NCBI GenBank assembly: GCA_030583725.1
Contig: CP129472.1
Coordinates: 529,902-593,901, forward strand
Direction: 5' to 3'
DNA: 64,000 bases
Origin: a bacterium
GTDB taxonomy: Bacteria > Patescibacteriota > Microgenomatia > UBA8517
This document shows, piece after piece, positions 27,710 to 63,142 of this stretch. How positions within the stretch are numbered: position 1 is the stretch's first letter; every line of letters starts with the position of its first letter. Made by a program: the position numbers and the translations under genes. The notes under the pieces were generated by a model. It searched no databases and was not told where the DNA came from. It was given only the letters and a program-made list of their open reading frames with translations.

Positions 27710-28858
27710 ATGAAATACATACCTAGAGATTTAGAAAAGATTGTTTCTAAAGCTAGCAAGACCTTTAAAGTGGTTTTTCTTGGAGGTCCGAGACAAGTTG
27801 GGAAAACCACACTTTTGAAGAAGCTTTCGGAAAACGAATACAGAACATACGTAACTCTTGATGATTTAAATCAAAGAGAACTTGCAATAAAAGATCCAAA
27901 GTTTTTTATAGAGCAACTCAAACTTCCTGTAATTATTGATGAAGTTCAATATGCTCCAGAACTTTTCCCTGTAATTAAAGAAATAGTTGATCGGTCGGAT
28001 AAAAATGGCCAATTTTGGATTACAGGATCTCAACAGTTTAATTTAATAAAAAATATCCAAGAGTCTCTTGCTGGTCGAGTTGCAATTTTAGATTTACTCG
28101 GCCTATCTCAGAAGGAGAAGCCTAAATTGAAGACGGTTTTTGAAGAAATATTTGAAGGTGGTTTTCCAGTTTTTCAATCAAAAGATAAACCAGACAGAAA
28201 TATTTTTTTTAATTCATACGTCCAAACATATTTAGATAGGGATCTTTCAGGTATCTTTGGGGTAACTAAATTGTCAGAATTTAACAGATTTATCCAAGTT
28301 TGTGCAGCGAGGACTGCCCAAGTGTTAAACATATCTGATATGGCAAGAGATAGTGGTATTCCTGTCTCTACCGCAGTAGAATGGCTTTCTCTTTTGGAAG
28401 CTACAAAACAAATATTTTTGCTAAGGCCATATTTCCCAAATATAACAAAAAGAATAATTAAAGCCCCAAAGTTATACTTTTTGGACACTGGACTTGCTTC
28501 CTTTTTAACAAAATGGGATAGCCTCGAGAATCTAAAAGCAGGAGCGATGTCAGGAGCGATTTTTGAGACATACTTAATTGTAGAATTTATTAAAAAATAT
28601 ATAAACAAAGGAAAAGAGCCACCACTTTATTACATAAGGGACAAAGAGGGTCATGAGGTAGACTTGTTAGTGCACGATAACGGAATTCATATGTATGAAT
28701 TTAAACTTGCTGCTAAAATAGATACTGATTTTGAAAAAAACATGAATTATTTTGAACAAAAATCAAAAGATTTCAAGTCTAAAACAATAATTTCTTTAAT
28801 CAAAAAACCATTAAAAGTAACTTCTGGTGTTGAATATGTGCCATATACTCAAATATAG
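27710..28858 (+). CDS. AAA-superfamily ATPase (AAA_14 + DUF4143 type)
   Basis: 382 aa. 'VVFLGGPRQVGKTTLLKKL' P-loop and 'PVIIDEVQYAPELF' Walker B. Overall layout of the DUF4143 ATPase family. Confidence 0.6.
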   Translation: MKYIPRDLEKIVSKASKTFKVVFLGGPRQVGKTTLLKKLSENEYRTYVTLDDLNQRELAIKDPKFFIEQLKLPVIIDEVQYAPELFPVIKEIVDRSDKNGQFWITGSQQFNLIKNIQESLAGRVAILDLLGLSQKEKPKLKTVFEEIFEGGFPVFQSKDKPDRNIFFNSYVQTYLDRDLSGIFGVTKLSEFNRFIQVCAARTAQVLNISDMARDSGIPVSTAVEWLSLLEATKQIFLLRPYFPNITKRIIKAPKLYFLDTGLASFLTKWDSLENLKAGAMSGAIFETYLIVEFIKKYINKGKEPPLYYIRDKEGHEVDLLVHDNGIHMYEFKLAAKIDTDFEKNMNYFEQKSKDFKSKTIISLIKKPLKVTSGVEYVPYTQI

Positions 28859-29346: not shown

Positions 29347-31809
29347 ATGGGAAATGAATCTCAAATCAATTCCAAGTTTTCTATTGGCATACCTGCTTCT
29401 TTACCTGGCGGTGAAAGATATTCGCCAGAATCTGTAAGAAATTTAGCCAATGTACAGCCTGATGAGGGACATAATTTAAGAACTGGCATGGAGGTAAAAA
29501 ATCAATTGGAAGATCCTGCAGACCAACTATCTGCGCAAATAGCTGAACAAGTTGCTCGATTGTTATCTGAAGAACGGGGGGAGAGTAGCTCTTCATTCTT
29601 TGCTTTAACAGACATATTAGCGAAAGAGAGGTTGCCTAAAGATCCCGAAAAACTAAACCAAATATATCGAGGGTTTACGGTTGATGCGATGGGTTTGTTG
29701 ATAACTGATGTTAAGGGAATTCGTTTAAATATGGTTGCGGATCAATTTGGTTTACAAAGACATGGTGCAACTTTAGATCAAATGACAAATCGACTTGAAT
29801 CTACTTTGTCAAAGCATGTTAGCGTTGATAAACTAAAACCAGAAGTCCAGCCATTAGCAAAAGTTTTGATGGCAGATATGGCAAGATTCGGTGGTATTGA
29901 AAAAATGGTCGAACATGCATCAGTTTTTCAGATGTTTTATTATGATGGTCTGTATATGTACGGGGCATTAGCTTCTGGACGTAGAATAAAAGTTTTAGGT
30001 ACAGATGATTTAAGATTGATTTTTGGTAATTTAAAAGGACTGGACCTTAAAGGTGTGGAACCGAGTGAAGAAATTGGCGAAGGAGCTGGTGAAACGTTAA
30101 GAAAAATGGTTGCTAATCAAATTCATTTTGATATGGCGATCGCTTCACTTAACAGGTTTAATCCGAATAAGCCAGCGGGTCAAGAAACTGAGATGAAAAT
30201 GTCAGAAACAGAACGTGCATTTTTGGGTAGTCTGTTTAAAAAAGATGGAAACAAGACAAAAGAAATAACAGTTAACGGCAAAACTTTCCAAACAAATTTA
30301 TTGTCTTTCTATTTAACTACAGATAAAGAAAAAGAAAGAAAAACTTCAGAAAGCCTTATGCAAGCTTTACATGTCCATGATGCAAAGGATATCTTAGATT
30401 CAATTGGAGAAGATCCTACAAAATTTACCGCTCCTGACGATGCAAAATATAAAGATCTATTATCAAAGGTACAAAAAACTGCAAAAGAGATTGAAAATGG
30501 GTGGGACTCGTTTATATCCACCCCAAAAGCTAGATTGGCAAAATGGGCAGGAGAAATTGCGTTTACTACAAACATTGCAACATTAAATGTTAATGATTTA
30601 GCCTATGGCTTTGAATGGGAACAGGATAAGAAGGATAAAAGCTGGCAATTTAAGCCAGCAATAGCAGGACCAAATACTGGATACGATGCAGTAAACATTT
30701 GGCTCTCGATGCAACACGAATTGGAATATATGCTTAAGGCTAGGGTTAGAACACCCGCTTTCCCTGGTGTTGCAAGTGACCAAGCTTGGGATTTTATAAG
30801 AAAGATTGTGGTTGAAAAAGAAGACCCAAAAATTAAAAGTGAAATCTTAAAAGATAGGGGGCTCATGCTCGGGGCTGCTATATTGGGAATGTATGAAGGT
30901 GAAATAAAACTCAATGAAAAAGATCAAACCGAAGTAGATAATATTCGAGGAGCTAGATTTGCAAAGGGAGATACTACAAAAATGATGAGTTTTAACACTG
31001 TTGCATTAAAGGTTTTGGAAAAGTCAATTTTTGGTTACCCTACATGGGTAGAGGGAAAAGTTTTACCAATACCAATAAGAGGAATGTTTAATGGTATTAA
31101 TCTTTTAAAGACAATGGTTGTGGATCCAAAAGCTGGTAAAACCGTTTTTGATAAATTAAATGAAGGAGAAACACTTGCGAGTGACTCAATAGATTTTGAA
31201 AATCAAAGTCCATACGTCGTTGATTCATGGCATGTAAATTTAAAAATGCTGGGCGATGTAATGAGATTAATGTACGGTCAAGGAGACAAGAAGACTCAGG
31301 AATCTTATTTTGCAGGTTCGGCATCTGAAGGATTAGGAACTCTTATTAAAAAAATGGATATAGGTACCCGTGGGGAATATGTACCTATGGATTTGGGTGA
31401 AACAGAAGGTGACGGCGTTACCCCGAAATTAACAAATATACCCAGACCTTTTTACGAAATTGTATATACCGCTTATGCGGTAGTTTCGCATCTAGCCTTT
31501 GTTGATCACGGTATTTGGGATGCTGGGGGTAAATGGAGAGGATTAGACCCTACACTTTTTTGGGATGGAAATGGATCAAAAAAGGGTGTGAAACAATGGG
31601 TTGAAGCAGCATACACTTCGTTGCCAGACAATAAAGGATCATTCGATCATTATAGAGATAGCATGGTTTTAATGATTGAGGCTATAGCACAATGGATGGT
31701 AAGCATTGCTCCAGCAGCTGAAAAATTAGGTGCTAAACAACAAGATGAGGCAACAATGCCTTTTACAAGCTCATTTGATGCTTTAAAAACTCTTAATAAT
31801 AAGCGGTAG
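29347..31809 (+). CDS. large soluble hypothetical protein (no TM, no recognisable motif)
   Basis: 820-aa uninterrupted ORF. Converges on the VirB6-like gene with a 2-bp gap. Confidence 0.5.
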   Translation: MGNESQINSKFSIGIPASLPGGERYSPESVRNLANVQPDEGHNLRTGMEVKNQLEDPADQLSAQIAEQVARLLSEERGESSSSFFALTDILAKERLPKDPEKLNQIYRGFTVDAMGLLITDVKGIRLNMVADQFGLQRHGATLDQMTNRLESTLSKHVSVDKLKPEVQPLAKVLMADMARFGGIEKMVEHASVFQMFYYDGLYMYGALASGRRIKVLGTDDLRLIFGNLKGLDLKGVEPSEEIGEGAGETLRKMVANQIHFDMAIASLNRFNPNKPAGQETEMKMSETERAFLGSLFKKDGNKTKEITVNGKTFQTNLLSFYLTTDKEKERKTSESLMQALHVHDAKDILDSIGEDPTKFTAPDDAKYKDLLSKVQKTAKEIENGWDSFISTPKARLAKWAGEIAFTTNIATLNVNDLAYGFEWEQDKKDKSWQFKPAIAGPNTGYDAVNIWLSMQHELEYMLKARVRTPAFPGVASDQAWDFIRKIVVEKEDPKIKSEILKDRGLMLGAAILGMYEGEIKLNEKDQTEVDNIRGARFAKGDTTKMMSFNTVALKVLEKSIFGYPTWVEGKVLPIPIRGMFNGINLLKTMVVDPKAGKTVFDKLNEGETLASDSIDFENQSPYVVDSWHVNLKMLGDVMRLMYGQGDKKTQESYFAGSASEGLGTLIKKMDIGTRGEYVPMDLGETEGDGVTPKLTNIPRPFYEIVYTAYAVVSHLAFVDHGIWDAGGKWRGLDPTLFWDGNGSKKGVKQWVEAAYTSLPDNKGSFDHYRDSMVLMIEAIAQWMVSIAPAAEKLGAKQQDEATMPFTSSFDALKTLNNKR

Positions 31810-33691: not shown

Positions 33692-33726
33692 AGAAGCTCC
33701 TAGTTTATTAGGAACTAGGAGCTTCT
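33692..33726. terminator. perfect 14-bp-stem hairpin (agaagctcctagtt-N7-aactaggagcttct) downstream of the pilin-operon genes
   Basis: Inverted repeat with a 7-nt loop in the 470-bp gap between the 786-aa gene and the VirB6-like gene. The flanks are AT-rich but there is no clean U-tract. Confidence 0.25.
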
Positions 33727-33940
33727 TAATGCTTATAATAATTTATGAATTTGTAGTACACTTTTTTTGTAATACTTACAAAGATTTTGTCAGCAAGCCA
33801 CTTTGGCCTCACGCCTAATCTCATTGAAGTAGAAGTAAATTTTTTTAAAAAGGGATTTCCTGGTTTTTCTGCAATTGGCCTTCCCGATAAGCCTATTGTA
33901 TGGGAATAAAAGGCATCGTTTCTGAAAGTTGGGGAAAGTA

Positions 33941-36301
33941 TTATGGACAGCTGAAATCTGTCGGCCACTGAATACCAAATTTGCCATTTTTGGGACACCC
34001 CGTGACCCAATTCCAAGTTGTGTTCATAACATCGTAATAATACTGTGAAGCCACCGTGTCTGAAGGGTCGCATATTCCAGCCGAGCTTTGGTATCGGCTA
34101 AGCCATCCATGCATTGGTTCGGTATACCCAGACATTCCAGAACAAAACTGTTGTTTTGCAAGTTGTGTGAATTTAAGCACTTGCTCTGGCAAGTTTTGGT
34201 AAATTTCTTTTAAATTAACACCCATATCTTGAGTTGTTTCTCCACCCTCGCAATAATTGCTGGCCCCAGATTCATTAAGCCATATTGTTAAAGCAAAAGC
34301 GGGATTGACACCTTCTTTCTGGGCAACGCTAGCAACAAAATTATAGCATTCCTCTGCCATGTTGTTCTCGGGTCCGGGACATTTTTGGCTCCATCTATCT
34401 GCTAAATCAATAAAGTTTTCTTTAAAACTACCTAAGTATTTTGACGGAACAGCTGAATCGGGTACGGTAACATCGCAAGAGTCTAGTACTGTTGGTTCGC
34501 AATTTCCATTTGCAATTGGCTCACCGTATCCTTTGGGTCGTAGGGCTGTTTGTATTCCTTTTAAGAAATATTCATAGACTGAACCAATGTGGGGGAATGT
34601 GAGTTGCGTGGTACTATTTGCCCCATCTGACGGATAATTTGTTATCTTTACCTCTTGGTCGCCACCATTGGGACTATCACTTCTTGATGTGTCATATGTC
34701 ACGTCTGTAACTGTTGGTATATCTGCAATACATTCAACTGGTGCACCCTCCCCAACTTTTGGAAATATCTTTCTAAATGTACTTCCTGAGTCTGCAACTG
34801 TTTGGGCAAATATTTCATCTGCCCAAGGCGTTTTTGTTCCTGTTTTTAGAGTTATATATACCTGAGCATTACACTTATGCGTGTAAAATAACCTTTCTAC
34901 ACAAGGATAGACGTTTGGAATACACCTAAAAGTCTCAGTCACCTTACAAAGAACTTGGTCAATTTGATATTGAACTCCCAACACCTGCATTTCATCTTGG
35001 TCACCAGGAAACAGGTTGTCACCCTCATTTACTCTAATGTTTGCGGCACTACAACTTAAACCCAACTCGTTTGTTGGTAGTGATTCTACTGTTTCAGACA
35101 GTTTTTCAGCTTCATAACCAGACGGGGTAAATGTAGTATTTAGTAATTCGGATAAATCTTTAACTTCTTGTGTGTGGGCAAAATAAAGAGGAGCTTGCCT
35201 CATACCCGTAAATTGTATTCCATTGGGAAAAGAAATTTCAGTACCAGCCCCACCTTCAAAATTTGGCCCATCGCCCTTTATGTAATTTGCACCTTTTTTG
35301 TCAACCGTTGAGGATAGTGGAATATATGAATACAACTCAGACCATTTGTTTGGAACAATATCAATAATGCCTCCAATTGCAGGATCTGCACACTGAAGAC
35401 CTAAAAAGGGAAGGACAACACAAACTTTACCCTGCCATTCTTGATACGCTTTTTGATAGTCTATTTGTTTTTCAAAGTCCCAAGGTAGAGGAGGGAATTT
35501 GTTGTTCCATTTATCTATCCCTGGAATAAGATTTAAAACCCAATTTAAAGTTGAAAGACTACCTTCACCCCAGCTACTAAGCCTTAATGGTTCCCCACCC
35601 TGGCTACATGGAATTGGGTTTCCATCTTGTTCACATACCACAATCTGGTCGTGATTTTGAGGTTCGCTTACAGTAGCTCCTATATCCTCATCTTCATATG
35701 CCACATTAACAGAGGCATCGGTAATTGTTTTTCTCCTTTGGTGTTCCTGAATCATATAGGGGATTAGCTTATTAACAGGCCCTGAATAATTTACAACTTG
35801 TTCATTTGTTGGGGTCCCATATTCAGCCCTACCAACAACACCAGACAGGTACCAACTGGCGTACTCGTTTAATTTTTGTGCATCGTCAAATTCTTCTGTG
35901 CCACCATAGTTATTTGTAACTTGTTCCGTGTTGCCAAGTATCGCAAACTCAGATTCTGAAAGTTCAATATATAGATTATGTGGACCTACGGGATAGTTTA
36001 CATCACAGGTATAGTCACCAGTTCTCCCGTTTCTTGGGCACTGACTGCTCAAGTCAAATGTTTCTATAAATTGTATTTCATTGCTACAAAACAAAGCTTT
36101 ACCAGCATCTCCACATGGTGCACCTTGGTAGGGTCTTAAAGAGTGAAATTCATCGTCGCTTGTTTCGTCACACGGAAACTTAATTCCAGGTACCGCACCT
36201 TCATCTCCAGCTGAAATGCGATCAATCTTGTATGTAAAAAAGACAGTTAAAGTAGATAAAAGGACAATACAGAAAAAAAGAAGTTTAGATAAATTTTTCA
36301 T
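33941..36301 (-). CDS. Cys-rich secreted protein, possible lysozyme-like C-terminal domain
   Basis: 786 aa. Signal peptide, about 40 Cys. C-terminal 'VASVAQKEGVNPAFALTIWLNESGASNY' resembles motif I (E-S) of soluble lytic transglycosylases. The following GLMQ motif was not seen. Confidence 0.35.
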   Translation of the reverse strand: MKNLSKLLFFCIVLLSTLTVFFTYKIDRISAGDEGAVPGIKFPCDETSDDEFHSLRPYQGAPCGDAGKALFCSNEIQFIETFDLSSQCPRNGRTGDYTCDVNYPVGPHNLYIELSESEFAILGNTEQVTNNYGGTEEFDDAQKLNEYASWYLSGVVGRAEYGTPTNEQVVNYSGPVNKLIPYMIQEHQRRKTITDASVNVAYEDEDIGATVSEPQNHDQIVVCEQDGNPIPCSQGGEPLRLSSWGEGSLSTLNWVLNLIPGIDKWNNKFPPLPWDFEKQIDYQKAYQEWQGKVCVVLPFLGLQCADPAIGGIIDIVPNKWSELYSYIPLSSTVDKKGANYIKGDGPNFEGGAGTEISFPNGIQFTGMRQAPLYFAHTQEVKDLSELLNTTFTPSGYEAEKLSETVESLPTNELGLSCSAANIRVNEGDNLFPGDQDEMQVLGVQYQIDQVLCKVTETFRCIPNVYPCVERLFYTHKCNAQVYITLKTGTKTPWADEIFAQTVADSGSTFRKIFPKVGEGAPVECIADIPTVTDVTYDTSRSDSPNGGDQEVKITNYPSDGANSTTQLTFPHIGSVYEYFLKGIQTALRPKGYGEPIANGNCEPTVLDSCDVTVPDSAVPSKYLGSFKENFIDLADRWSQKCPGPENNMAEECYNFVASVAQKEGVNPAFALTIWLNESGASNYCEGGETTQDMGVNLKEIYQNLPEQVLKFTQLAKQQFCSGMSGYTEPMHGWLSRYQSSAGICDPSDTVASQYYYDVMNTTWNWVTGCPKNGKFGIQWPTDFSCP

Positions 36302-36314
36302 TTAACATTTAAAG

Positions 36315-36590
36315 TTACCTCGTAATTGTAAAATTGGTGACGTTAGCACCTGTGAATGTTTCTATAATTTTTAAAATCAAAAAAGAACCTGCCAAAAGTA
36401 TTAAACCACCAATTGCATAGGTAAGTGTGTTTCTAGCTCCTTCTACAGCCTTAGGGTCACCACCTGAAGTTAAATATTTAAATCCACCTGAAAGAAGCAT
36501 TAAAAATAAAACTATTCCACCTAGGGCCAGTAGGGCAGCGACTACGTTTTCAAATACACCTGTCAATGCTGATAGTTGTGGTGGTTCCAT
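36315..36590 (-). CDS. VirB2/TrbC-like (T4SS pilin-like) protein, paralog 7
   Basis: 91 aa. TM1, 'SGGDPKAVEGARNTLTYAIGGL' loop, TM2. This family signature is shared with the six upstream paralogs. Confidence 0.45.
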   Translation of the reverse strand: MEPPQLSALTGVFENVVAALLALGGIVLFLMLLSGGFKYLTSGGDPKAVEGARNTLTYAIGGLILLAGSFLILKIIETFTGANVTNFTITR

Positions 36591-36634
36591 ACAAAGTAAG
36601 TTTAAATGAAAACAATAAATTGAGCAAGAGAAGA

Positions 36635-36976
36635 TTATTTAGACAGTTGTCCTGCTGAAGGAATGGTTAACTTCATTAAGTTAACTCCAAAGAAGGTGTC
36701 AATTAATTGAATTATTGCCCAAGCTGAAAAAACAATAACTAAACCAACCAAAGCTGCTGTAATTTGATTTCTTGCTCCTTCTGTGTGAGCTTTGTCACCA
36801 CCTGAAAGTATCCATTTAATACCACCAATAACTAGAATAAAGAAAAAGGCTAAACCTGCAACTACAAGCACTAATCCTATAAAACCAGAAACAATACCTT
36901 CAACTGTAAGACCTGTTGCTGGTTGAAAATTACCTAGCCCTTGGTTTAACTCTATTTGTGCAAGCAAATTATTCAT
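36635..36976 (-). CDS. VirB2/TrbC-like pilin-like protein, paralog 6
   Basis: 113 aa. 'SGGDKAHTEGARNQITAALVGL' between two hydrophobic helices. Confidence 0.45.
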   Translation of the reverse strand: MNNLLAQIELNQGLGNFQPATGLTVEGIVSGFIGLVLVVAGLAFFFILVIGGIKWILSGGDKAHTEGARNQITAALVGLVIVFSAWAIIQLIDTFFGVNLMKLTIPSAGQLSK

Positions 36977-36989
36977 ATGTATAAGCGTA

Positions 36990-37370
36990 TTATTGAATAA
37001 CCAGTGGACCTATGTCAATAGACAAAATGTCTATTCCAAAGAAACCTTCAATCAGTTTTGCGATTGCAAAAACTCCAACCATTAAAACCAAACCAATAAT
37101 TGCATTTGTAATTCTTCCTTTTGCATTTTCAACACTAGCCTTGTCACCACCAGACACAATCCATGTAATTGCACCCCAGAGGAACATAAAGAAAAATGCA
37201 ACACCACCAAAAACAAGCAGTATCCCCACAACCTTGGGGAGTAAAAGTTGTAAAAAACTTTCACCACCAGTTGGTCTTGTTACAAGGCTGGTATACATAT
37301 CACCGAACAAGGGATTTGTAATACCTCCACCTTTGTCAATTTCACCGCCCGCCAACAATTTATTATCCAT
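36990..37370 (-). CDS. VirB2/TrbC-like pilin-like protein, paralog 5
   Basis: 126 aa. 'SGGDKASVENAKGRITNAIIGL' between two TM helices. Confidence 0.45.
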   Translation of the reverse strand: MDNKLLAGGEIDKGGGITNPLFGDMYTSLVTRPTGGESFLQLLLPKVVGILLVFGGVAFFFMFLWGAITWIVSGGDKASVENAKGRITNAIIGLVLMVGVFAIAKLIEGFFGIDILSIDIGPLVIQ

Positions 37371-37371
37371 T

Positions 37372-37749
37372 TTATTTGATTTGAATCCTATCTAATAAGT
37401 TAGGTATTTGTAATATTCCTTCAATGTTAAATATTTGACCCATTAAATTTATTATAAAAATACCAAAAATTGTAATTAGTAAACCAATTAGCCCATTTGT
37501 GATCCTCTTTCTAGCAGCTTCAGTTGCCTTCTGGTCAGAACCAGCTCCCATATATGAAATACCGCTAGTAATGATTATTATCACAAACCAAACAATGGCG
37601 ATTATACTGACAAGCCCAATTGCGGTCGAAATAAAATTTTGAAATATTACAGCTGAAGTTGAGCTTGTTATTCCACCCTCTAAACCCAATGATCCAAAAC
37701 CTTCATATCCGTCATTTTCAAATAGTTCGATTTGAGTTAATTTGTTCAT
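37372..37749 (-). CDS. VirB2/TrbC-like pilin-like protein, paralog 4
   Basis: 125 aa. 'GAGSDQKATEAARKRITNGLIGL' between two TM helices. Confidence 0.45.
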   Translation of the reverse strand: MNKLTQIELFENDGYEGFGSLGLEGGITSSTSAVIFQNFISTAIGLVSIIAIVWFVIIIITSGISYMGAGSDQKATEAARKRITNGLIGLLITIFGIFIINLMGQIFNIEGILQIPNLLDRIQIK

Positions 37750-38084
37750 GGTGTAGGTATGGTTGGTTTAAGTATGAAATCCCAACTTCCAAAAAGTAGC
37801 TGTCCAAAGATTGCAGCTAGTACAAAAGCACCAGCTGAAAAAGCAAGACCAATAATAGTTTGATAGATTTGTGCCCAAGCTGCTGCGACTTTTTTGCTGT
37901 CATCACCCGCACCCATAAAAGAGTAACCAGCTAAAACCAAGTTAAATAAAGCATAAATTCCAGCTCCAACGACCAATGCACGTAGGCCAAACTGTATAAG
38001 TTTACCAAACGCAGGACCAGGTTCTAAACCATACTGTTGCAAACCTTCAGGTACTGTTACTGTGCCAAATGGGTTATTATCCAT
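37746..38084 (-). CDS. VirB2/TrbC-like pilin-like protein, paralog 3
   Basis: 112 aa. 'GAGDDSKKVAAAWAQIYQTIIGL' between two TM helices. Overlaps its neighbour by 4 nt. Confidence 0.4.
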   Translation of the reverse strand: MDNNPFGTVTVPEGLQQYGLEPGPAFGKLIQFGLRALVVGAGIYALFNLVLAGYSFMGAGDDSKKVAAAWAQIYQTIIGLAFSAGAFVLAAIFGQLLFGSWDFILKPTIPTP

Positions 38085-38093
38085 ACTTTTATT

Positions 38094-38429
38094 CTAATTT
38101 ATACCTCCAATTAAATCCAGTCCAGTTATTGATTCAATTAATTTAACTATCCAATAAGCACTAAATACAACCACAAAACCAATTAAGGCAGAAGTTGCAG
38201 CAAGTTTACCCTTCTGTACTGTTTGAGGATCATTTTTACCAGCTCCAGCTATCATTGCAATTCCACCACCGACCAACAAAAAAAGTAAAATTATTCCTGC
38301 AACTGAAATTGCACCAGCAAAAAAATTACTAACAAAAACACCAACACCTTCAGTATTTTTTAAATTTTGTCCAGAACCTCCTAAAAATGTATCTCCTATT
38401 TCAACTGCTAGTTTATTCATATTATCCAA
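38094..38429 (-). CDS. VirB2/TrbC-like pilin-like protein, paralog 2
   Basis: 111 aa. 'GAGKNDPQTVQKGKLAATSALIGF' between two TM helices. Confidence 0.45.
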   Translation of the reverse strand: MDNMNKLAVEIGDTFLGGSGQNLKNTEGVGVFVSNFFAGAISVAGIILLFLLVGGGIAMIAGAGKNDPQTVQKGKLAATSALIGFVVVFSAYWIVKLIESITGLDLIGGIN

Positions 38430-38736
38430 ATAAAGTTAAATCTATCCCAAGAAATTGCATTACTAGTTTTACAATCCAAAAAGATGTAAACAAAATGAGT
38501 ATCCCAATTGCAGATGTGGTTAACTTTGCTTGGGCTACCTGCATTACTTTTGGATCTCCCTGTGATGTCATCATTTTAAAACCACTAGTGACAATATTAA
38601 AAAGTAAAATTATGCCAGCTACACCAAAGATGTATGGGAGTGCCAATTCAATAAATCCGGCGGGCTCCAGTAACACGTTCCAAGCGGGTAAACCGGCGTT
38701 GTTTTGAATCGATGTAAAGGTTGATGTTTCAAACAT
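38422..38736 (-). CDS. VirB2/TrbC-like pilin-like protein, paralog 1
   Basis: 104 aa. 'SQGDPKVMQVAQAKLTTSAIGI' between two TM helices. Overlaps its neighbour by 8 nt. Confidence 0.45.
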   Translation of the reverse strand: MFETSTFTSIQNNAGLPAWNVLLEPAGFIELALPYIFGVAGIILLFNIVTSGFKMMTSQGDPKVMQVAQAKLTTSAIGILILFTSFWIVKLVMQFLGIDLTLFG

Positions 38737-38755
38737 TTTTATAATTTTATTTCAT

Positions 38756-39400
38756 TCATAAACTATCTAATCCTAGTATATCAATTCCTATGAACTTTAA
38801 TATAAATACACTAAAAATTAACATAATTAATCCTGAAATTGCAGAAGTTAAAAGTTCTTGACCTGCTTTTAATCTATCTGGTACTCCTTGGCTAGTCATA
38901 ATCATAAAACTGGCATAGACAATTAACAAAAATGCAATTCCACCACCAATACCAACAGCCCAACCCAATATCCAACCCATAAATGAATTTGTGTCACCAA
39001 CAGGAATACAACCTATGGCTGTGTTTATTGATTCTGCATCACATCCAGCCATCGGGTCAGAAACATTACCACCACCCATAGGGGTTAACTCTCCGTCTCT
39101 ACACCTTACACATTCAATAGCTTGTTGTGAGCCTCTACACACGTAAGAACAGTCATCGGTTGGAACTATCCCACCAGGAACCATTGTTTGCTGTACCGTA
39201 TCAGATGGGCACCCTTGACTTACTGGGTAACAAAGTTTTCCTGATGAAGAATTGCATCCAATTGTTCCCCTAGGACATTGTCCACCTGTCCCTGGTTGGA
39301 CCTGTGCAAATGTAGGTTTAATTGATGTGCTAGTTAAACTCAAAAGAATGAACAAACTCAATATTATTTTTTTCATAATTATCAACTTTGAGTTTAACAT
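38756..39400 (-). CDS. secreted Cys-rich protein with C-terminal pilin-like module (first gene of the pilin array)
   Basis: 214 aa. Signal peptide, 12 Cys in about 100 aa. The C-terminus 'TSQGVPDRLKAGQELLTSAISGL' plus flanking helices matches the paralog family. Probable true start is the internal Met at 39376 (MKKIILSLF...). Confidence 0.45.
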   Translation of the reverse strand: MLNSKLIIMKKIILSLFILLSLTSTSIKPTFAQVQPGTGGQCPRGTIGCNSSSGKLCYPVSQGCPSDTVQQTMVPGGIVPTDDCSYVCRGSQQAIECVRCRDGELTPMGGGNVSDPMAGCDAESINTAIGCIPVGDTNSFMGWILGWAVGIGGGIAFLLIVYASFMIMTSQGVPDRLKAGQELLTSAISGLIMLIFSVFILKFIGIDILGLDSL

Positions 39401-39438
39401 ACCGACAAAGTGTTTTCAGCTGGTATAATAAAATAATC

Positions 39439-41187
39439 ATGAATTTCAAATTTTTAAAGTACAGTTTATTGTTAATATTTATTCTTTTTTCATTGTTTGT
39501 TATCTACAACTTACCATCTACAACAAAAGCTGTAAGTGAATCAGACTGTCTAAACAAAAGTGTTTCTGAATTGTCTCAGTCTGAGATGGACGAATGTATA
39601 AATGTGATACTACCTAGAATTGCAGCTGCCTACGCACCCGCACAAGAGCAAAATAAAGCCAACCTTGCAGGCTTAAAAAAACAAATTGACAGTCTAAACG
39701 TTAGGATTAACTCAATTTCTAAGGAGTTGGTTGTCAAAGAAAGTAACATTCAAGAAAGAGAAAAAGATTCATCCTATGCCCAAAAAATTTTAAACCAAAA
39801 AGCAGTCAATCAGTACATTACATCAAGATTATATGACCCAATAACCGCCTTAATATCATCAGTTAATGTAATCGATGTTTTTAAAACAATAAAGATAACA
39901 GAAATGGTTGCTGAAGAAGACAGAAAAACTATAGAAAAATATTCAGAAGAAATTAATAATTTAAAAAATGATAAGGAGTCATTAGAAAAAAATAAAATAT
40001 CACTAGCAAGTTTACAAAAGAAAGTAAGTGGAGACGCCAAGTTTTTAGAGGCAGAAGTTGGAAAGGTTGATACCTTTTTGTCTGCCCTAAGTGCTAAACA
40101 ACAAGAAATTATAAATTTACGTTCCGGTAATTTTATAGCTAGTATTGGGGATGGTACCCTTGCCTCTACAGGTGTGTCTTCGAGATCTCATTTTCTTTCT
40201 TCTGCCCCCAGCGGTTACTATGCGGTATTTTCTTTTGGCGCATATACACATAGGAATGGAATGAGCCAGTATGGAGCACTGGGTAGGGTGAAAAATGGAA
40301 AATCGGCAGAAGACGTTTTACGTTATTACTATCCGGGTGTAAATCTTACACAAGTAAACACTAATGTAACAATTATTGTTAATGGTAAAAATACATATGG
40401 TCAGGTTTTCAATAATGAGCCTTATCAATTAGAAGAATATTTAAAACATATATATGAAATGCCCGGTTCCTGGCCAAAAGAGGTTTTGAAAGCTCAAGCG
40501 ATTGCAGCTAGAAGTTTCGCGTATGGAAAATCTACCATTTGTCCAGGCCAGTCTTGTCAGGAGTTTAAGCGTGAAGAAAATACTGACAATTGGAAAAACG
40601 CAGTCAAGGAGACTGAAGGAATAATAATGACGGGGGGGTCCGGTAGTTATCAATATTCTTCAACAACCGGAGGGTGGATGAATACGACTGGGTGGGATAC
40701 AACAGATGGACAAGGTGGAACTAATTTTCTTGAGAAAACATACGAAACGCTTGGGGGGTCACCTTGGACATATTTAGCGTGGTATGTTGATATATTTGGA
40801 GAGTATGGGTCGAAAGGGGGTACTTGTGGAAAAAGCAATCCATGGTTAAGTCCTGAAGAAATGGCCGATATAGTTAATGCTCATCTGGTTTTGACTAAAG
40901 GAACAGGAGAAGAACAATCTAGAATTTCGCCAGTAACAACGGGTTGCTGGCCTGGTAACCCATACAGTATTTCAGAACTAAGAAGTGTTGCAAGTAAGTA
41001 TGGTGGTATCGAAACCGCCACTACTTCACCATCTGTATTGCTAGGTAATGGAACGACTAATAGTGTTACTATAAACAGTATTCAGATGAGCGGGGCAGAA
41101 TTCAAACGTGCATTTGCTTTAAGAGCGCCCGGATTTATACGTATTCCTCAAAAAGGATTTGCATTTTTCAATATTGAAAAGAAGTAA
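39439..41187 (+). CDS. SpoIID/LytB-domain protein with N-terminal signal/TM and long coiled coil
   Basis: C-terminal 'YQLEEYLKHIYEMPGSWPKEVLKAQAIAARSFAYGK' is the SpoIID/LytB signature. Residues 60-230 are heptad-rich. The track ORF starts at 39388. 39439 (MNFKFLKYSLLLIF...) is preferred because 39388 would overlap the divergent gene. Confidence 0.55.
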   Translation: MNFKFLKYSLLLIFILFSLFVIYNLPSTTKAVSESDCLNKSVSELSQSEMDECINVILPRIAAAYAPAQEQNKANLAGLKKQIDSLNVRINSISKELVVKESNIQEREKDSSYAQKILNQKAVNQYITSRLYDPITALISSVNVIDVFKTIKITEMVAEEDRKTIEKYSEEINNLKNDKESLEKNKISLASLQKKVSGDAKFLEAEVGKVDTFLSALSAKQQEIINLRSGNFIASIGDGTLASTGVSSRSHFLSSAPSGYYAVFSFGAYTHRNGMSQYGALGRVKNGKSAEDVLRYYYPGVNLTQVNTNVTIIVNGKNTYGQVFNNEPYQLEEYLKHIYEMPGSWPKEVLKAQAIAARSFAYGKSTICPGQSCQEFKREENTDNWKNAVKETEGIIMTGGSGSYQYSSTTGGWMNTTGWDTTDGQGGTNFLEKTYETLGGSPWTYLAWYVDIFGEYGSKGGTCGKSNPWLSPEEMADIVNAHLVLTKGTGEEQSRISPVTTGCWPGNPYSISELRSVASKYGGIETATTSPSVLLGNGTTNSVTINSIQMSGAEFKRAFALRAPGFIRIPQKGFAFFNIEKK

Positions 41188-43463: not shown

Positions 43464-43470
43464 CACTTAG

Positions 43471-43844
43471 TGGAGATGGAGGGAATCGAACCCTCATCCG
43501 AAAAACTTTATAACAAAACTTCTACAAGCTTATTTAGTTAATGAAATTTCCTTTTAACTTATCCAACTAACAGGAGATTAAAAGTAAGATTTAATTATCT
43601 TTTGTAAAATTCCTTTAAATCAAAAGGAAAATTACAGCATCTCGAATTGGTTTACACCCAGTCGGTCCGATCGAGAATCAGACTTCAGGACGCCAGTTAA
43701 GCGTATAACATTTGATAGTTATAAGCGAAGCTAGGAGCGATGTTTTTAGGCATTGCTTTTAGTTTTTGATATCTTTTGACAAGTGTTTATCAAACTTGGC
43801 TTGCTGTTTTGTAAAAGAGCTATCCGTCGAAACCGGTCATCCCC
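43471..43844 (-). ncRNA. ssrA: tmRNA (ssrA)
   Basis: Minus-strand 5' end is GGGGAUGACCGGUUUCGACGG. The 3' end is a tRNA-like T-arm and acceptor GGUUCGAUUCCCUCCAUCUCCA that pairs with the 5' end. Internal tag-like reading frame ...APSFAYNYQMLYA-TAA. Lies 9 nt downstream of smpB. Confidence 0.7.
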
Positions 43845-48624: not shown

Positions 48625-48712
48625 CGGTGAGGGTGGGATTCGAACCCACGGTAGCCAAATTGACTACAGAAGTTTTCAAGACTTCCGCACTAGACCTCTA
48701 TGCGACCTCACC
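48625..48712 (-). tRNA. tRNA-Ser (anticodon UGA)
   Basis: Manual fold. Acceptor GGTGAGG/CCTCACC, 3-bp D stem, anticodon loop CTTGAAA, long variable arm, T-arm GTGGG-TTCGAAT-CCCAC. No encoded CCA. Confidence 0.8.
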
Positions 48713-48735
48713 TTGCTTGTCATAGTGTGATTTTG

Positions 48736-48822
48736 CGGTGGGGGCGAGATTCGAACTCGCGCGAGTATTACTACTCAGAGAATTAGCAATTCTCCGCAAT
48801 GGGCCAACTATGCGACCCCACC
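48736..48822 (-). tRNA. tRNA-Ser (anticodon GCU)
   Basis: Acceptor GGTGGGG/CCCCACC, anticodon loop TTGCTAA, long variable arm GAGTA-GTAA-TACTC, T-arm GCGAG-TTCGAAT-CTCGC. Confidence 0.8.
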
Positions 48823-48835
48823 TTAATCTGCAATT

Positions 48836-48937
48836 ATAGCATCAACGATACTGAATCTCATAGCATCAACGATGCTGAATCTCATAGCATCAACGATGCT
48901 GAATCTCATAGCATCAACGATGCTGAATCTCATAGCA
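48836..48937. repeat. about 4.3 tandem copies of a 24-bp unit (ATAGCATCAACGATGCTGAATCTC), each with an internal GCATC...GATGC palindrome
   Basis: Read directly. Copies at 48836, 48860, 48884 and 48908 plus a partial fifth. First copy has one mismatch. No intervening unique spacers. Confidence 0.85.
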
Positions 48938-48970
48938 GATACACCACGCTAATCTGATATACTAATTTAT

Positions 48971-49483
48971 ATGGAACCTGCCAACCAAAATGAGACTACA
49001 TTCAAACCTGATTTGGAAAAAGAATTATTTACTTGGGTTGCTCCAGCCAGGCCATTTAAGAGAAGAGATAGGCATTTTTATGTAACTACAATTTCAATTG
49101 CAGCTATGGTTTGTTTAATTCTGTTTCTTGCAGAGGGGGCAATGCCTGTAATTTTAATTATTTCACTTATTTTCTTGTATTATGTTATGAGCACTGTTCC
49201 ACCTGACAATATTGAATATAGAATTACAAATAAAGGCATAAAAGTTGGGGACAGACGAGTTGATTGGCAATTTTTAGGTAGATTTTGGTTTGGAAAAAGA
49301 TATGACAGTGAACTTTTAATTCTAGAAACAAGTTTTATACCAAACAGAATGGAACTTGTAATTACCCCTGAATCAAAAGAACAAATAATAAAAACTCTTT
49401 CAGAATATTTAGTTCAAGAAGAAGTTTCACCTTCAAGATTAGACAAGGCAATTGACTGGTTTAGTAAAAAACTCCCCAATTAA
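48971..49483 (+). CDS. hypothetical membrane protein (two TM then soluble domain; possibly PH-like)
   Basis: 170 aa. Layout is similar to the bPH-type proteins at 41208 and 53972. Confidence 0.35.
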   Translation: MEPANQNETTFKPDLEKELFTWVAPARPFKRRDRHFYVTTISIAAMVCLILFLAEGAMPVILIISLIFLYYVMSTVPPDNIEYRITNKGIKVGDRRVDWQFLGRFWFGKRYDSELLILETSFIPNRMELVITPESKEQIIKTLSEYLVQEEVSPSRLDKAIDWFSKKLPN

Positions 49484-49579
49484 AGTATAATATACCTACT
49501 TAGATTTTTTAGTGCCCGTAGTTCAACGGATAACAACCTTGCTTCGCAAGAACGTTGTCAGTTGACTGCTTGCACTTAT

Positions 49580-49651
49580 GTGCCCGTAGTTCAACGGATA
49601 GAATTGAAGATTGCGGATCTTTAGATACAAGTTCGATTCTTGTCGGGCACA
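49580..49651 (+). tRNA. tRNA with anticodon GCG (Arg-type) by manual fold
   Basis: Acceptor GTGCCCG/CGGGCAC, D-arm GTTC-AACGGATA-GAAT, anticodon stem GAAGA/TCTTT with loop TTGCGGA, T-arm ACAAG-TTCGATT-CTTGT, discriminator A. Confidence 0.55.
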
Positions 49652-49664
49652 CATAAGAAAGTAA

Positions 49665-49749
49665 GGAGGGTTCGCATAGTGGCCAATTGCACGAGTTTCG
49701 AAAACTCGAGGGAGTAATCCCTTCGCAGGTTCAAATCCTGCACCCTCCG
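49665..49749 (+). tRNA. tRNA-Ser (anticodon CGA)
   Basis: Acceptor GGAGGGT/ACCCTCC, anticodon loop TTCGAAA, variable arm GGGA-GTAA-TCCC, T-arm GCAGG-TTCAAAT-CCTGC. Confidence 0.8.
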
Positions 49750-49787
49750 CTAAAGTTTTTCGTGATATAATACCTGATAAATAAACT

Positions 49788-50225
49788 ATGAAAAATGGAA
49801 ACAATGAAGTCTTAGTGGGTGGGGCAGTAGTATTTAAAGAAGGTAAAAGTAAACTTCAATATTTACTTTCGAAAAACAGTGATGGTGATTGGGAGTTATT
49901 AAAATCAACAGTCAGAAGGGGAGAATCTTCAGTTAGGTCGGTTATTAGATATACATCTGAACAAGGAAATATGAACACAAGGGTTTTGGATGAAATAGGT
50001 AGGGCAACAAGTACTGCAACTGTTAACAATAAAACTATTAGTTATAAATACATATATTATTTAATGATTTTTAAAGCAGGGGCAGAAATATCAGGTATGG
50101 GAGAGATTAATTGGCTTGATTATTCAAATGCATCAAAAAAGATAAAACTAAAAAGAGAAAAAGACATTTTAAAATCAGCTTCAGTAATGGTTAAAGAGTG
50201 GCAAAAAAAGAAAAAGAAAAAATAA
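49788..50225 (+). CDS. hypothetical protein with Lys-rich tail
   Basis: 145 aa. A weak Nudix-like stretch was considered and not accepted. Confidence 0.3.
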   Translation: MKNGNNEVLVGGAVVFKEGKSKLQYLLSKNSDGDWELLKSTVRRGESSVRSVIRYTSEQGNMNTRVLDEIGRATSTATVNNKTISYKYIYYLMIFKAGAEISGMGEINWLDYSNASKKIKLKREKDILKSASVMVKEWQKKKKKK

Positions 50226-50235
50226 CTAAATTCTC

Positions 50236-50451
50236 ATGAGTGATGCATCTATTGAACTAATTGAGAAACATGAAAGATTAGAACCCCACGAGAGTGACAA
50301 CAAAACAAGAGAGGTTGCAGCAGCTCGTCTGTGGGTGACGGGCGATGACTTAAATATGAGAATTGCAGAAAAAATTTGGAAAGAAACAGGAACTTTACAA
50401 CCCTCAATTCAATCACTGAAAGATCACATGCTTCAGTTAAAAAACAAGTGA
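50236..50451 (+). CDS. hypothetical small protein
   Basis: 71-aa ORF between a CDS and tRNA-Ser(GGA). No motif. Confidence 0.2.
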   Translation: MSDASIELIEKHERLEPHESDNKTREVAAARLWVTGDDLNMRIAEKIWKETGTLQPSIQSLKDHMLQLKNK

Positions 50452-50467
50452 TATAATACCCCTTATT

Positions 50468-50551
50468 GGAAGGGTGTCCGAGTGGTTTAAGGAGCACGAT
50501 TGGAAATCGTGTGGTGTTAAAGCCTCGCAGGTTCGAATCCTGTCCCTTCCG
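50468..50551 (+). tRNA. tRNA-Ser (anticodon GGA)
   Basis: Acceptor GGAAGGG/CCCTTCC, 3-bp D stem TCC/GGA, anticodon loop TTGGAAA, T-arm GCAGG-TTCGAAT-CCTGT. Confidence 0.75.
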
Positions 50552-62930: not shown

Positions 62931-63001
62931 AACCTTTGCTCCTCGGGCACGATTCGAACGTGCAACCTTGATCTTAACAGGATCCTGCTCTGCCGTTGAG
63001 C
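62930..63001 (-). tRNA. tRNA-Asn (anticodon GUU)
   Basis: Acceptor TCCTCGG/CCGAGGA, D-arm GCTC-AACGGCA-GAGC, anticodon loop CTGTTAA, T-arm GCACG-TTCGAAT-CGTGC. Confidence 0.8.
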
Positions 63002-63142
63002 TACCGAGGATTATATTTAAAAGTAACCAACCTGGCGATTGTTAAAGAACAAGGCCAATTATATCAACTAGCCATGTAATATGCTAGACATAAGCCTCGA
63101 TTAATCCATAACTTGGCCTGAGATGTTATATAATATACATAT

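Follow-up and report, generated by a model that had tools for sequence, protein, structure and literature searches.

The closest described counterparts of the protein examined here are PrgK of pCF10, TraG of pIP501, TcpG of pCW3 and Orf14 of Tn916, extracytoplasmic proteins that are encoded in type IV secretion system (T4SS) clusters of MPF-FATA ancestry. They have an N-terminal membrane anchor and a lysozyme-type glycan-cleaving module, often together with an M23/LytM or CHAP peptidase, and the "SLT" domain of PrgK is actually a muramidase (PMC12857230). In Patescibacteria, the T4SS cluster of Southlakia epibionticum encodes SEML1_0006, a protein with GH73, phage-tail lysozyme and cysteine protease domains, the gene of which lies two genes away from the gene of a DUF87/P-loop (VirB4-type) ATPase, SEML1_0008 (PMC10633639). 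The T4SS with its pilin array was essential for epibiotic growth in the one Patescibacteria system tested, that of Saccharibacteria (PMC10633639). A survey of the Patescibacteria T4SSs found VirB1 homologues to be mostly unlinked to virB4 and VirB6 to be scarce in Microgenomatia, and it considered that pilus biogenesis may not need VirB1 and that other glycosidases may substitute for it (PMC12102498).

We analysed a window of 64,000 nucleotides (nt) from the genome of an ultrasmall bacterium of the Microgenomatia (contig CP129472.1, positions 529,902 to 593,901 of the forward strand), in which the gene of a 786-amino-acid (aa) protein directly follows an array of T4SS pilin genes. Its product is a genuine T4SS/pilus-operon protein, conserved and not annotated before. 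We consider it reasonably probable that it is an exported, disulfide-rich accessory of the Microgenomatia T4SS or pilus, with a divergent lysozyme-like tail that cuts peptidoglycan in the manner of a VirB1 analogue. The 786-aa family could be the wall-cutting enzyme that has been reported as mostly missing in surveys of Patescibacteria.

Gene, predicted signal peptide and body

The coding sequence is complete (33941..36301, minus strand, with the stop codon after FSCP), in agreement with an earlier reading of the window that had been made without database searches (the sequence-only reading). Its product is 100% identical to the NCBI entry "MAG: hypothetical protein QY322_03160 [bacterium]", encoded on an 842-kb contig, and the relatives are all Patescibacteria proteins without names. 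An overlapping 115-aa open reading frame (ORF) at 33726..34073 was rejected as spurious because it lies mostly within the 3' untranslated region. The protein was divided into the following parts:

36209..36301, minus strand: predicted Sec signal peptide, residues 1-31, cut after I-S-A, as read from the sequence
34502..36196, minus strand: conserved body, residues 36-600, 565 aa, delimited by the BLAST coverage of homologues and by alignment
33944..34489, minus strand: C-terminal A-type domain, residues 605-786, 182 aa, proposed as a divergent lysozyme-like module from an AlphaFold2 (AF2) model, Foldseek, 387 cluster representatives and domain co-occurrence
34253..34282, minus strand: motif W674-L-N-E677-S-G-A-S681-N-Y683, with the candidate catalytic Glu at the C-terminal end of a helix
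34220..34228, minus strand: D692-M-G694 (family motif Q-D-F-G-I), with the candidate second acidic residue

The N-terminus consists of MKNLSK, a 16-residue hydrophobic stretch and ISA/GD (the slash marks the predicted cut), and clear AXA signal-peptidase sites are present in the homologues, for example VQA/QE and VSA/QN. Because of the hydrophobic N-terminus and the AXA sites of the homologues, the protein is most likely exported and cleaved, not membrane-anchored, which makes the signal peptide proposed by the sequence-only reading plausible. The protein contains 25 Cys, of which 24 remain once the signal peptide is removed. This content of 3.2% is about four times the background of 0.78% calculated from all ORFs of at least 150 aa in the window, so the protein had correctly been described as Cys-rich, although the count of about 40 given for it was too high. 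The 24 Cys of the mature protein are largely conserved, and in the body 12 Cys are kept in at least 92% of 113 homologues. As expected for a VirB1-class protein, it is encoded in a T4SS cluster, and the predicted signal peptide and the conserved Cys suggest an extracytoplasmic location.

No Pfam or NCBIfam family matched the whole protein at E ≤ 1, a PADLOC scan found none either, and the same holds for the body. The full-length AF2 model (predicted local distance difference test score, pLDDT, 87; predicted template modelling score, pTM, 0.75) shows a mixed alpha/beta body with two very long beta-hairpins, at residues 68-115 and 438-492. For residues 36-600 the sequence and profile searches of the PDB gave no match beyond chance level, and Foldseek of the full-length model against the PDB found no relative of the body. 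The modelled body therefore appears to be a novel fold without a known relative. Neither TraN (PF06986) nor other T4SS adhesin or tip families matched it at E ≤ 1, and the "adhesin-like" label that it had been given did not hold. The F-type TraN is likewise a large, exported and Cys-rich T4SS accessory. TraN uses a beta-hairpin tip. Unlike the 786-aa protein, TraN sits in the outer membrane of diderms, and as no sequence or structural match between the two was found, the likeness of the body to TraN is one of analogy, not of homology.

The C-terminal A-type domain

When modelled alone from 22 sequences, the C-terminal domain is all-alpha, with seven helices and a pLDDT of 91. The segment EECYNFVASVAQKEGVNPAFALTIWLNESGASNY, in which a resemblance to motif I of the SLT/GH23 lysozyme-like domains had been seen, begins at residue 650 of the protein, and motif I of SLT (PF01464) and goose-type (g-type) lysozymes does resemble the G-V-N-P-x-F-x-L-x-I-W-L-x-E-S helix of the A-type domain. 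The candidate catalytic helix spans residues 67-78 of the modelled domain. Its Glu (model residue 77) stands near the C-terminal end, the canonical position of the catalytic acid in the lysozyme superfamily, and as in SLT motif I this helix ends with Glu-Ser/Thr (E677 and S678).

In 165 diverse sequences W674, E677, S681, D692 and G694 are 100% invariant. Residue 678 is Ser in 93% of them and otherwise Thr, so that in the E-S dipeptide noted by the sequence-only reading the Glu is invariant and its neighbour is conserved as Ser/Thr. N682, Y683, Q707, C720 and C744 are conserved in at least 97%. The resulting A-type signature is W-[LVI]-x-E-[ST]-x-A-S-N-Y ... D-F-G, with a distance from the Glu to the Asp that is most often 15 residues.

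The profile of the domain was searched against 1.84 billion representative proteins (E ≤ 0.001), and the matches formed at least 387 clusters at 50% identity. The context was counted for the 143 newly returned representatives among 150 listed. Among these listed matches, the A-type domain stood behind the body in 64 of 143 proteins, without the body and without a long C-terminal extension in 49 (some of which may be fragments), and without the body and with more than 100 residues after the domain in 30. Among 45 other carriers of the domain, Peptidase_M23 was found in 11, Peptidase_C39_2 in four and CHAP in two, and the peptidase was C-terminal to the A-type domain in all six proteins examined in detail. 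A glycosidase joined to a peptidase is the classic layout of a wall hydrolase. Such A-domain-plus-peptidase proteins are encoded directly downstream of virB4, in PrgI-TraC-VirB4 clusters, in two loci (L080 and L081). A third locus, L082, has an A-domain-plus-peptidase protein with the same downstream genes and the same dnaN/dnaA context as L080, and the partial gene upstream of it has no VirB4 match.

The fold comparisons point in the same direction, although no single match is significant. The Foldseek lists for the modelled domain were dominated by the lysozyme superfamily, nearly all of the best matches being GH73/GH23-like. The top PDB match was the GH73 structure 8yxk (E 0.12, template modelling (TM) scores 0.44/0.52, non-significant), followed by g-type lysozymes, AtlE, MltE, a GH23 chitinase, AtlA, Auto and LytB. 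In BFVD the top match was a phage transglycosylase (E 0.058, TM 0.45, non-significant), and the others included glucosaminidases, LT_GEWL domains, tape-measure lysozyme domains and PRD1 P7. A g-type lysozyme, aligned on the C-terminal domain, was the sole plausible match of the full-length model.

The direct comparisons were thus negative or weak, the stronger evidence being indirect (the fusions, the T4SS neighbourhood and the alternative tails described below), and several results weigh against a lysozyme-like domain. The isolated domain matched no family at E ≤ 10, and none of the 45 other A-type carriers matched SLT, GH23, GH73 or other lysozyme hidden Markov models (HMMs) at E ≤ 1. PHROGs gave no match to the domain at E ≤ 1, and the sequence and profile searches of the PDB returned nothing for it. 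The model, all-alpha past the FGI motif, is without the beta-hairpin lobe on which GH23 and GH73 carry motif II or their second catalytic residue, and residues 680-690 are of low confidence in the full-length model. All Foldseek matches of the domain are non-significant (best E 0.058, TM 0.44-0.52). In addition, the 786-aa protein has a predicted cleavable signal peptide, whereas PrgK and TraG have a membrane anchor.

Membership in the known families was also assessed. For SLT/GH23, the HMM comparison that the sequence-only reading had proposed (SLT, GH23 and lysozyme families) gave no match, and the family-1 lytic transglycosylase profiles PF01464 and PF13406 had no significant match to the 786-aa protein. 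In the alignments motif II (G-L-M-Q) is not found in the A-type domain, its place reading Q-D-[FM]-G-[IV]; in the 786-aa protein Q-D-M-G-V stands there, in line with the absence of GLMQ noted before. No conserved motif III (A-Y-N-x-G) follows downstream, and a family-wide profile searched against the PDB reached MltC only at E of about 1.2-1.7. Membership in SLT/GH23 is therefore not supported, although the leading fold matches include g-type lysozyme and MltE.

GH73, represented by the C-terminal domain of FlgJ and by Auto, AtlE, AtlA, LytB and Ecd09610, provided the best PDB fold match, and the two conserved A-type motifs align with it (ESG...FG[IV]) at least as well as with SLT. When aligned by hhalign with a 14-sequence GH73 profile, built from E. 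coli FlgJ and 12 phage endolysin fragments, the A-type profile had its ESG and FG[IV] in register (P 4e-4 to 4e-3), and a Phe 16 residues past the Glu is common to the A-type domain and to the GH73 enzymes of phages and Gram-positive bacteria. The probabilities of 9-35% are non-significant and cover 27-57 columns only, which is a further point against the lysozyme-like assignment. The A-type domain differs from GH73 by an invariant Asp directly before the Phe, by the missing beta-hairpin with its second acid and by the missing YATD motif, the region of which reads G-x-C-D-P. PF01832 (GH73, Glucosaminidase) matched neither the 786-aa protein nor the 45 other carriers, and a jackhmmer search with FlgJ found no canonical GH73 protein among the sequences gathered for the analysis. 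GH73 membership could not be demonstrated either.

One could argue from these results that the domain is not an enzyme at all but a helical, disulfide-stabilised structural or binding module, such as one that binds peptidoglycan or pilin, the protein being a pilus or channel subunit or an adhesin with a TraN- or VirB5-like role. Such a module would explain that no HMM recognises a lysozyme family in the domain, that the fold matches are all non-significant and that it has neither the beta-lobe nor motifs II and III, and it is the body, not the tail, that is the most conserved part of the family. We nevertheless regard it as improbable. The Glu/Asp pair and the W..E[ST].ASNY signature are invariant over the 165 sequences at identities down to about 30%, which argues for chemistry rather than scaffolding; the domain recurs N-terminal to M23, CHAP or C39 peptidases; every alternative tail found behind the body (see below) has a Glu at the same place; and Pfam TraN does not match. 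Because of the invariant residues, the Glu at the helix end, the fold matches and the fusion to M23, CHAP and C39, the C-terminal domain is most likely an unannotated and very divergent lysozyme-like module. The 786-aa protein is probably a divergent functional analogue of VirB1, but it cannot be shown to belong to SLT/GH23 or to GH73. What stands of the VirB1-like wall hydrolase postulated by the sequence-only reading is, on indirect evidence, an exported protein with a lysozyme-like C-terminus that is encoded beside pilins; the SLT/GH23 assignment is not supported.

The invariant Glu/Asp pair favours a hydrolase (a muramidase or a glucosaminidase) rather than a single-Glu lytic transglycosylase, as far as the sequence can tell. 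In the mechanism that we propose, the 786-aa protein would be exported by Sec and folded oxidatively, and its body would attach it to the pilus, to the secretion apparatus or to a target surface. The C-terminal domain would then cleave glycan strands via Glu677, probably helped by Asp692, and the local gap in the sacculus would allow the pilus or the T4SS channel to cross a cell wall. A mechanistic analogue is FlgJ, in which a scaffold or cap domain is joined to a wall hydrolase at the C-terminus, so that a filament can pass through the sacculus.

Interchangeable tails and the choice of wall

According to the BLAST coverage, residues 36-600 are common to the homologues, while the last 186 residues of the 786-aa protein are shared by only 24 of 120. 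The remaining proteins carry other tails behind the same body:

Tail class A, the type of the 786-aa protein: 24 of 120 proteins, WLNESGASNY...QDFGI
Tail class B: 79 of 120 proteins, ...FGEG...LMGF
Tail class C: 10 of 120 proteins, ...KLESG...GIGQI
Tail class D: 5 of 120 proteins, ...VETD...GPAQIM

One protein (P0104) has a distinct tail outside these classes. The alternative tails B, C and D keep the invariant Glu, and six of 53 match Pfam SLT below the threshold (best E 0.001); weak matches to MltC were seen as well. When the classes were compared by hhalign, C and D aligned with a probability of 96% and B and C with 89%, while the A-type aligned with the others over the motif-I helix only (15-33%), even with the 165-sequence profile. 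Since the alternative tails keep the Glu, match SLT weakly and are related to one another, the position behind the body appears always to be filled by some lysozyme-type module. Together with the apparently novel fold of the body, these swappable tails are the most intriguing aspect of the family.

On a neighbour-joining (NJ) tree of the bodies the tail classes are scattered, the 113 sequences requiring at least 27 switches, a count inflated by the poor resolution of the tree at about 60% identity. The nearest body relatives of the 786-aa protein after P0002 have C- and B-type tails. Tail swapping over a body tree is a pattern typical of polymorphic toxins, and it raises the possibility of a weapon directed at a host: the body would be a delivery or pilus-tip module, and the lysozyme-like cassettes would be exchanged to match the peptidoglycan of the host, not that of the cell itself. 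This explanation deserves consideration because the protein has a predicted signal peptide and no membrane anchor, is encoded in the pilin operon and belongs to a family whose tail classes are scattered. It also agrees with the gene lying beside the pilins rather than virB4, with the separate HExxH peptidase-like protein that already follows virB4, and with the essential role of the T4SS for epibiotic growth in Saccharibacteria (PMC10633639). We judge it possible, but on the whole unlikely, as secretion is suggested by the Sec signal alone, no adjacent immunity gene is evident (the downstream gene encodes a conserved 552-aa membrane protein), the poorly resolved tree inflates the switch count, the swapping of modules can be neutral among equivalent housekeeping hydrolases, and no Microgenomatia host is known. 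A bolder version, in which the body is a pilus-tip or pilus-associated carrier of interchangeable lysozyme-like "drill heads" that breach the host wall, so that the protein would be a host-range determinant in episymbiosis and the first wall-piercing device of a monoderm T4SS pilus, seems to us a little more doubtful still.

As a T4SS or pilus accessory, the 786-aa protein would resemble the PrgK class of proteins. Like them, other Patescibacteria proteins, with genes directly after virB4, combine the A-type domain with an M23, CHAP or C39 peptidase. The 786-aa protein differs from them by having no HMM-level homology to SLT, GH73, CD419/TrsG-type or other domains, by its predicted cleavable signal peptide in place of their N-terminal membrane anchor, by its 565-aa Cys-rich body of apparently novel fold with a tail exchanged among four classes, and by the position of its gene after the pilin array, not after virB4. 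SEML1_0006 of Southlakia is a T4SS-linked wall hydrolase of Patescibacteria from a system with a pilin array, but its domains (PF18013, PF01832 and a Cys protease) are canonical and detectable with Pfam, it lacks the body, and its gene occupies another position in the cluster. The comparison suggests that in Microgenomatia a VirB1-type hydrolase is present but hidden, its domain family being unannotated in the HMM libraries and fused to a body of unknown fold. If its activity is confirmed, the domain would found a new lysozyme-like family and the Microgenomatia T4SS parts list would be completed, and the swappable tails would provide a handle on how uncultivated cells cross their own walls or those of their hosts.

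Operon, synteny and T4SS neighbourhood

The 786-aa gene was compared with its surroundings in the window, where the following features were recognised:

36315..39400, minus strand: eight tandem T4SS_pilin (PF18895) genes, directly upstream of the 786-aa gene
33693..33725, minus strand: perfect inverted repeat of 13 bp around a 7-nt loop, some 215 nt past the stop codon
31812..33470, minus strand: 552-aa polytopic membrane protein in the VirB6/PrgH position, a conserved downstream neighbour
21206..27577, minus strand: T4SS core block with PrgI, a TrsD-like protein, VirB4 and a 915-aa protein
26540..27577, minus strand: PrgI/VirB3-like protein
25818..26519, minus strand: TrsD-like protein
23956..25821, minus strand: VirB4 of the CD1110 family (370.9 bits, cut-off 325)
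21206..23953, minus strand: 915-aa membrane protein, HELAH zinc-peptidase motif at the C-terminus
39388..41187, plus strand: SpoIID/LytB-domain protein, 599 aa, divergent from the pilin array

All eight small genes upstream match PF18895, and the scores of four exceed the gathering threshold. The 786-aa gene thus does lie at the end of a pilin array, as the sequence-only reading had it, but the pilins are of the T4SS VirB2 type and do not belong to type IV pili. Only 13 nt separate the last pilin gene from the 786-aa gene. The inverted repeat past the stop codon would form an RNA hairpin of -22 kcal/mol, without a T-run, and is likely the transcription terminator of the operon; a consensus scan for promoters and terminators performed no better than on shuffled sequence. 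From the 13-nt gap and the position of the hairpin, the 786-aa gene is probably the final cistron of the pilin operon, co-transcribed with the eight pilins.

A scan of species-representative genomes retrieved 78 related loci. Their lineage labels, where named, are almost always Patescibacteria (Woesebacteria, Microgenomates, Patescibacteria group bacterium), and many of the other records are labelled generically or doubtfully, for example as "uncultured Gammaproteobacteria bacterium". In nearly every locus that was long enough the order is the same: the divergent SpoIID-like gene, pilins 8 to 1, the 786-type gene, the 552-aa gene, PrgI-TrsD-VirB4 and the 915-aa gene. The exceptions are L057, L073 and L077, in which the 786-type gene follows the 915-aa gene, and L006, in which it lies upstream of the SpoIID-like gene. 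These displaced copies could be taken to indicate an unrelated exported protein that is a mere neighbour of the T4SS and pilin genes. We find this highly improbable, as the gene stays inside the T4SS cluster in essentially every locus that could be judged while the proteins are 25-55% identical between species. The position of the body is as conserved as that of the pilins.

The 552-aa protein downstream matched no HMM. From its place in the cluster and its predicted membrane topology it may be the "missing" VirB6 of Microgenomatia, and together the 786-aa family and this neighbour are good candidates for the missing VirB1 and VirB6 parts. The SpoIID/LytB-domain protein is syntenic in nearly all related loci; it may be another wall-remodelling enzyme that goes with the cluster.

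Each pilin in the related loci has its best match in the positional counterpart in the window. Because the order and these positional matches are kept between species, the array seems to consist of eight separate, conserved subunits rather than of recent tandem copies. The first gene of the array (38756..39400, 214 aa) has a Cys-rich N-terminal extension with 10 Cys (4.7%).

The 915-aa protein, the gene of which follows virB4 in many loci, consists of a coiled-coil-like N-terminus, a Gly/Ala-rich membrane region and the HELAH C-domain, with a weak match to Peptidase_M64 (E 5e-4). It was rejected as a carrier of the A-type domain, since it has no such domain and no similarity to the A-domain-plus-peptidase proteins. 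In L080 and L082, the T4SS cluster with the A-domain-plus-M23 hydrolase adjoins dnaN and dnaA, and in L080 also rpmH, rnpA and yidC, in line with the origin-proximal location given in PMC12102498.

In the window the T4SS cluster falls into two halves, separated by genes on the opposite strand. An AAA_14/DUF4143 ATPase gene (27710..28858, plus strand) breaks the cluster and is also present in L007, L009, L013, L017, L053, L067 and L069; its position within the cluster differs between genomes, which suggests that it is mobile or was independently inserted. Between the two halves there is also an 820-aa ORF (29347..31809, plus strand) without a family match, which is present in only a few related loci (L014, L015 and L044). 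Elsewhere in the window there are a tmRNA gene (43468..43844, minus strand, 137.8 bits) and six tRNA genes, five of which are clustered at 48625..50551 (48.6-50.6 kb) and the other at 62939..63010.

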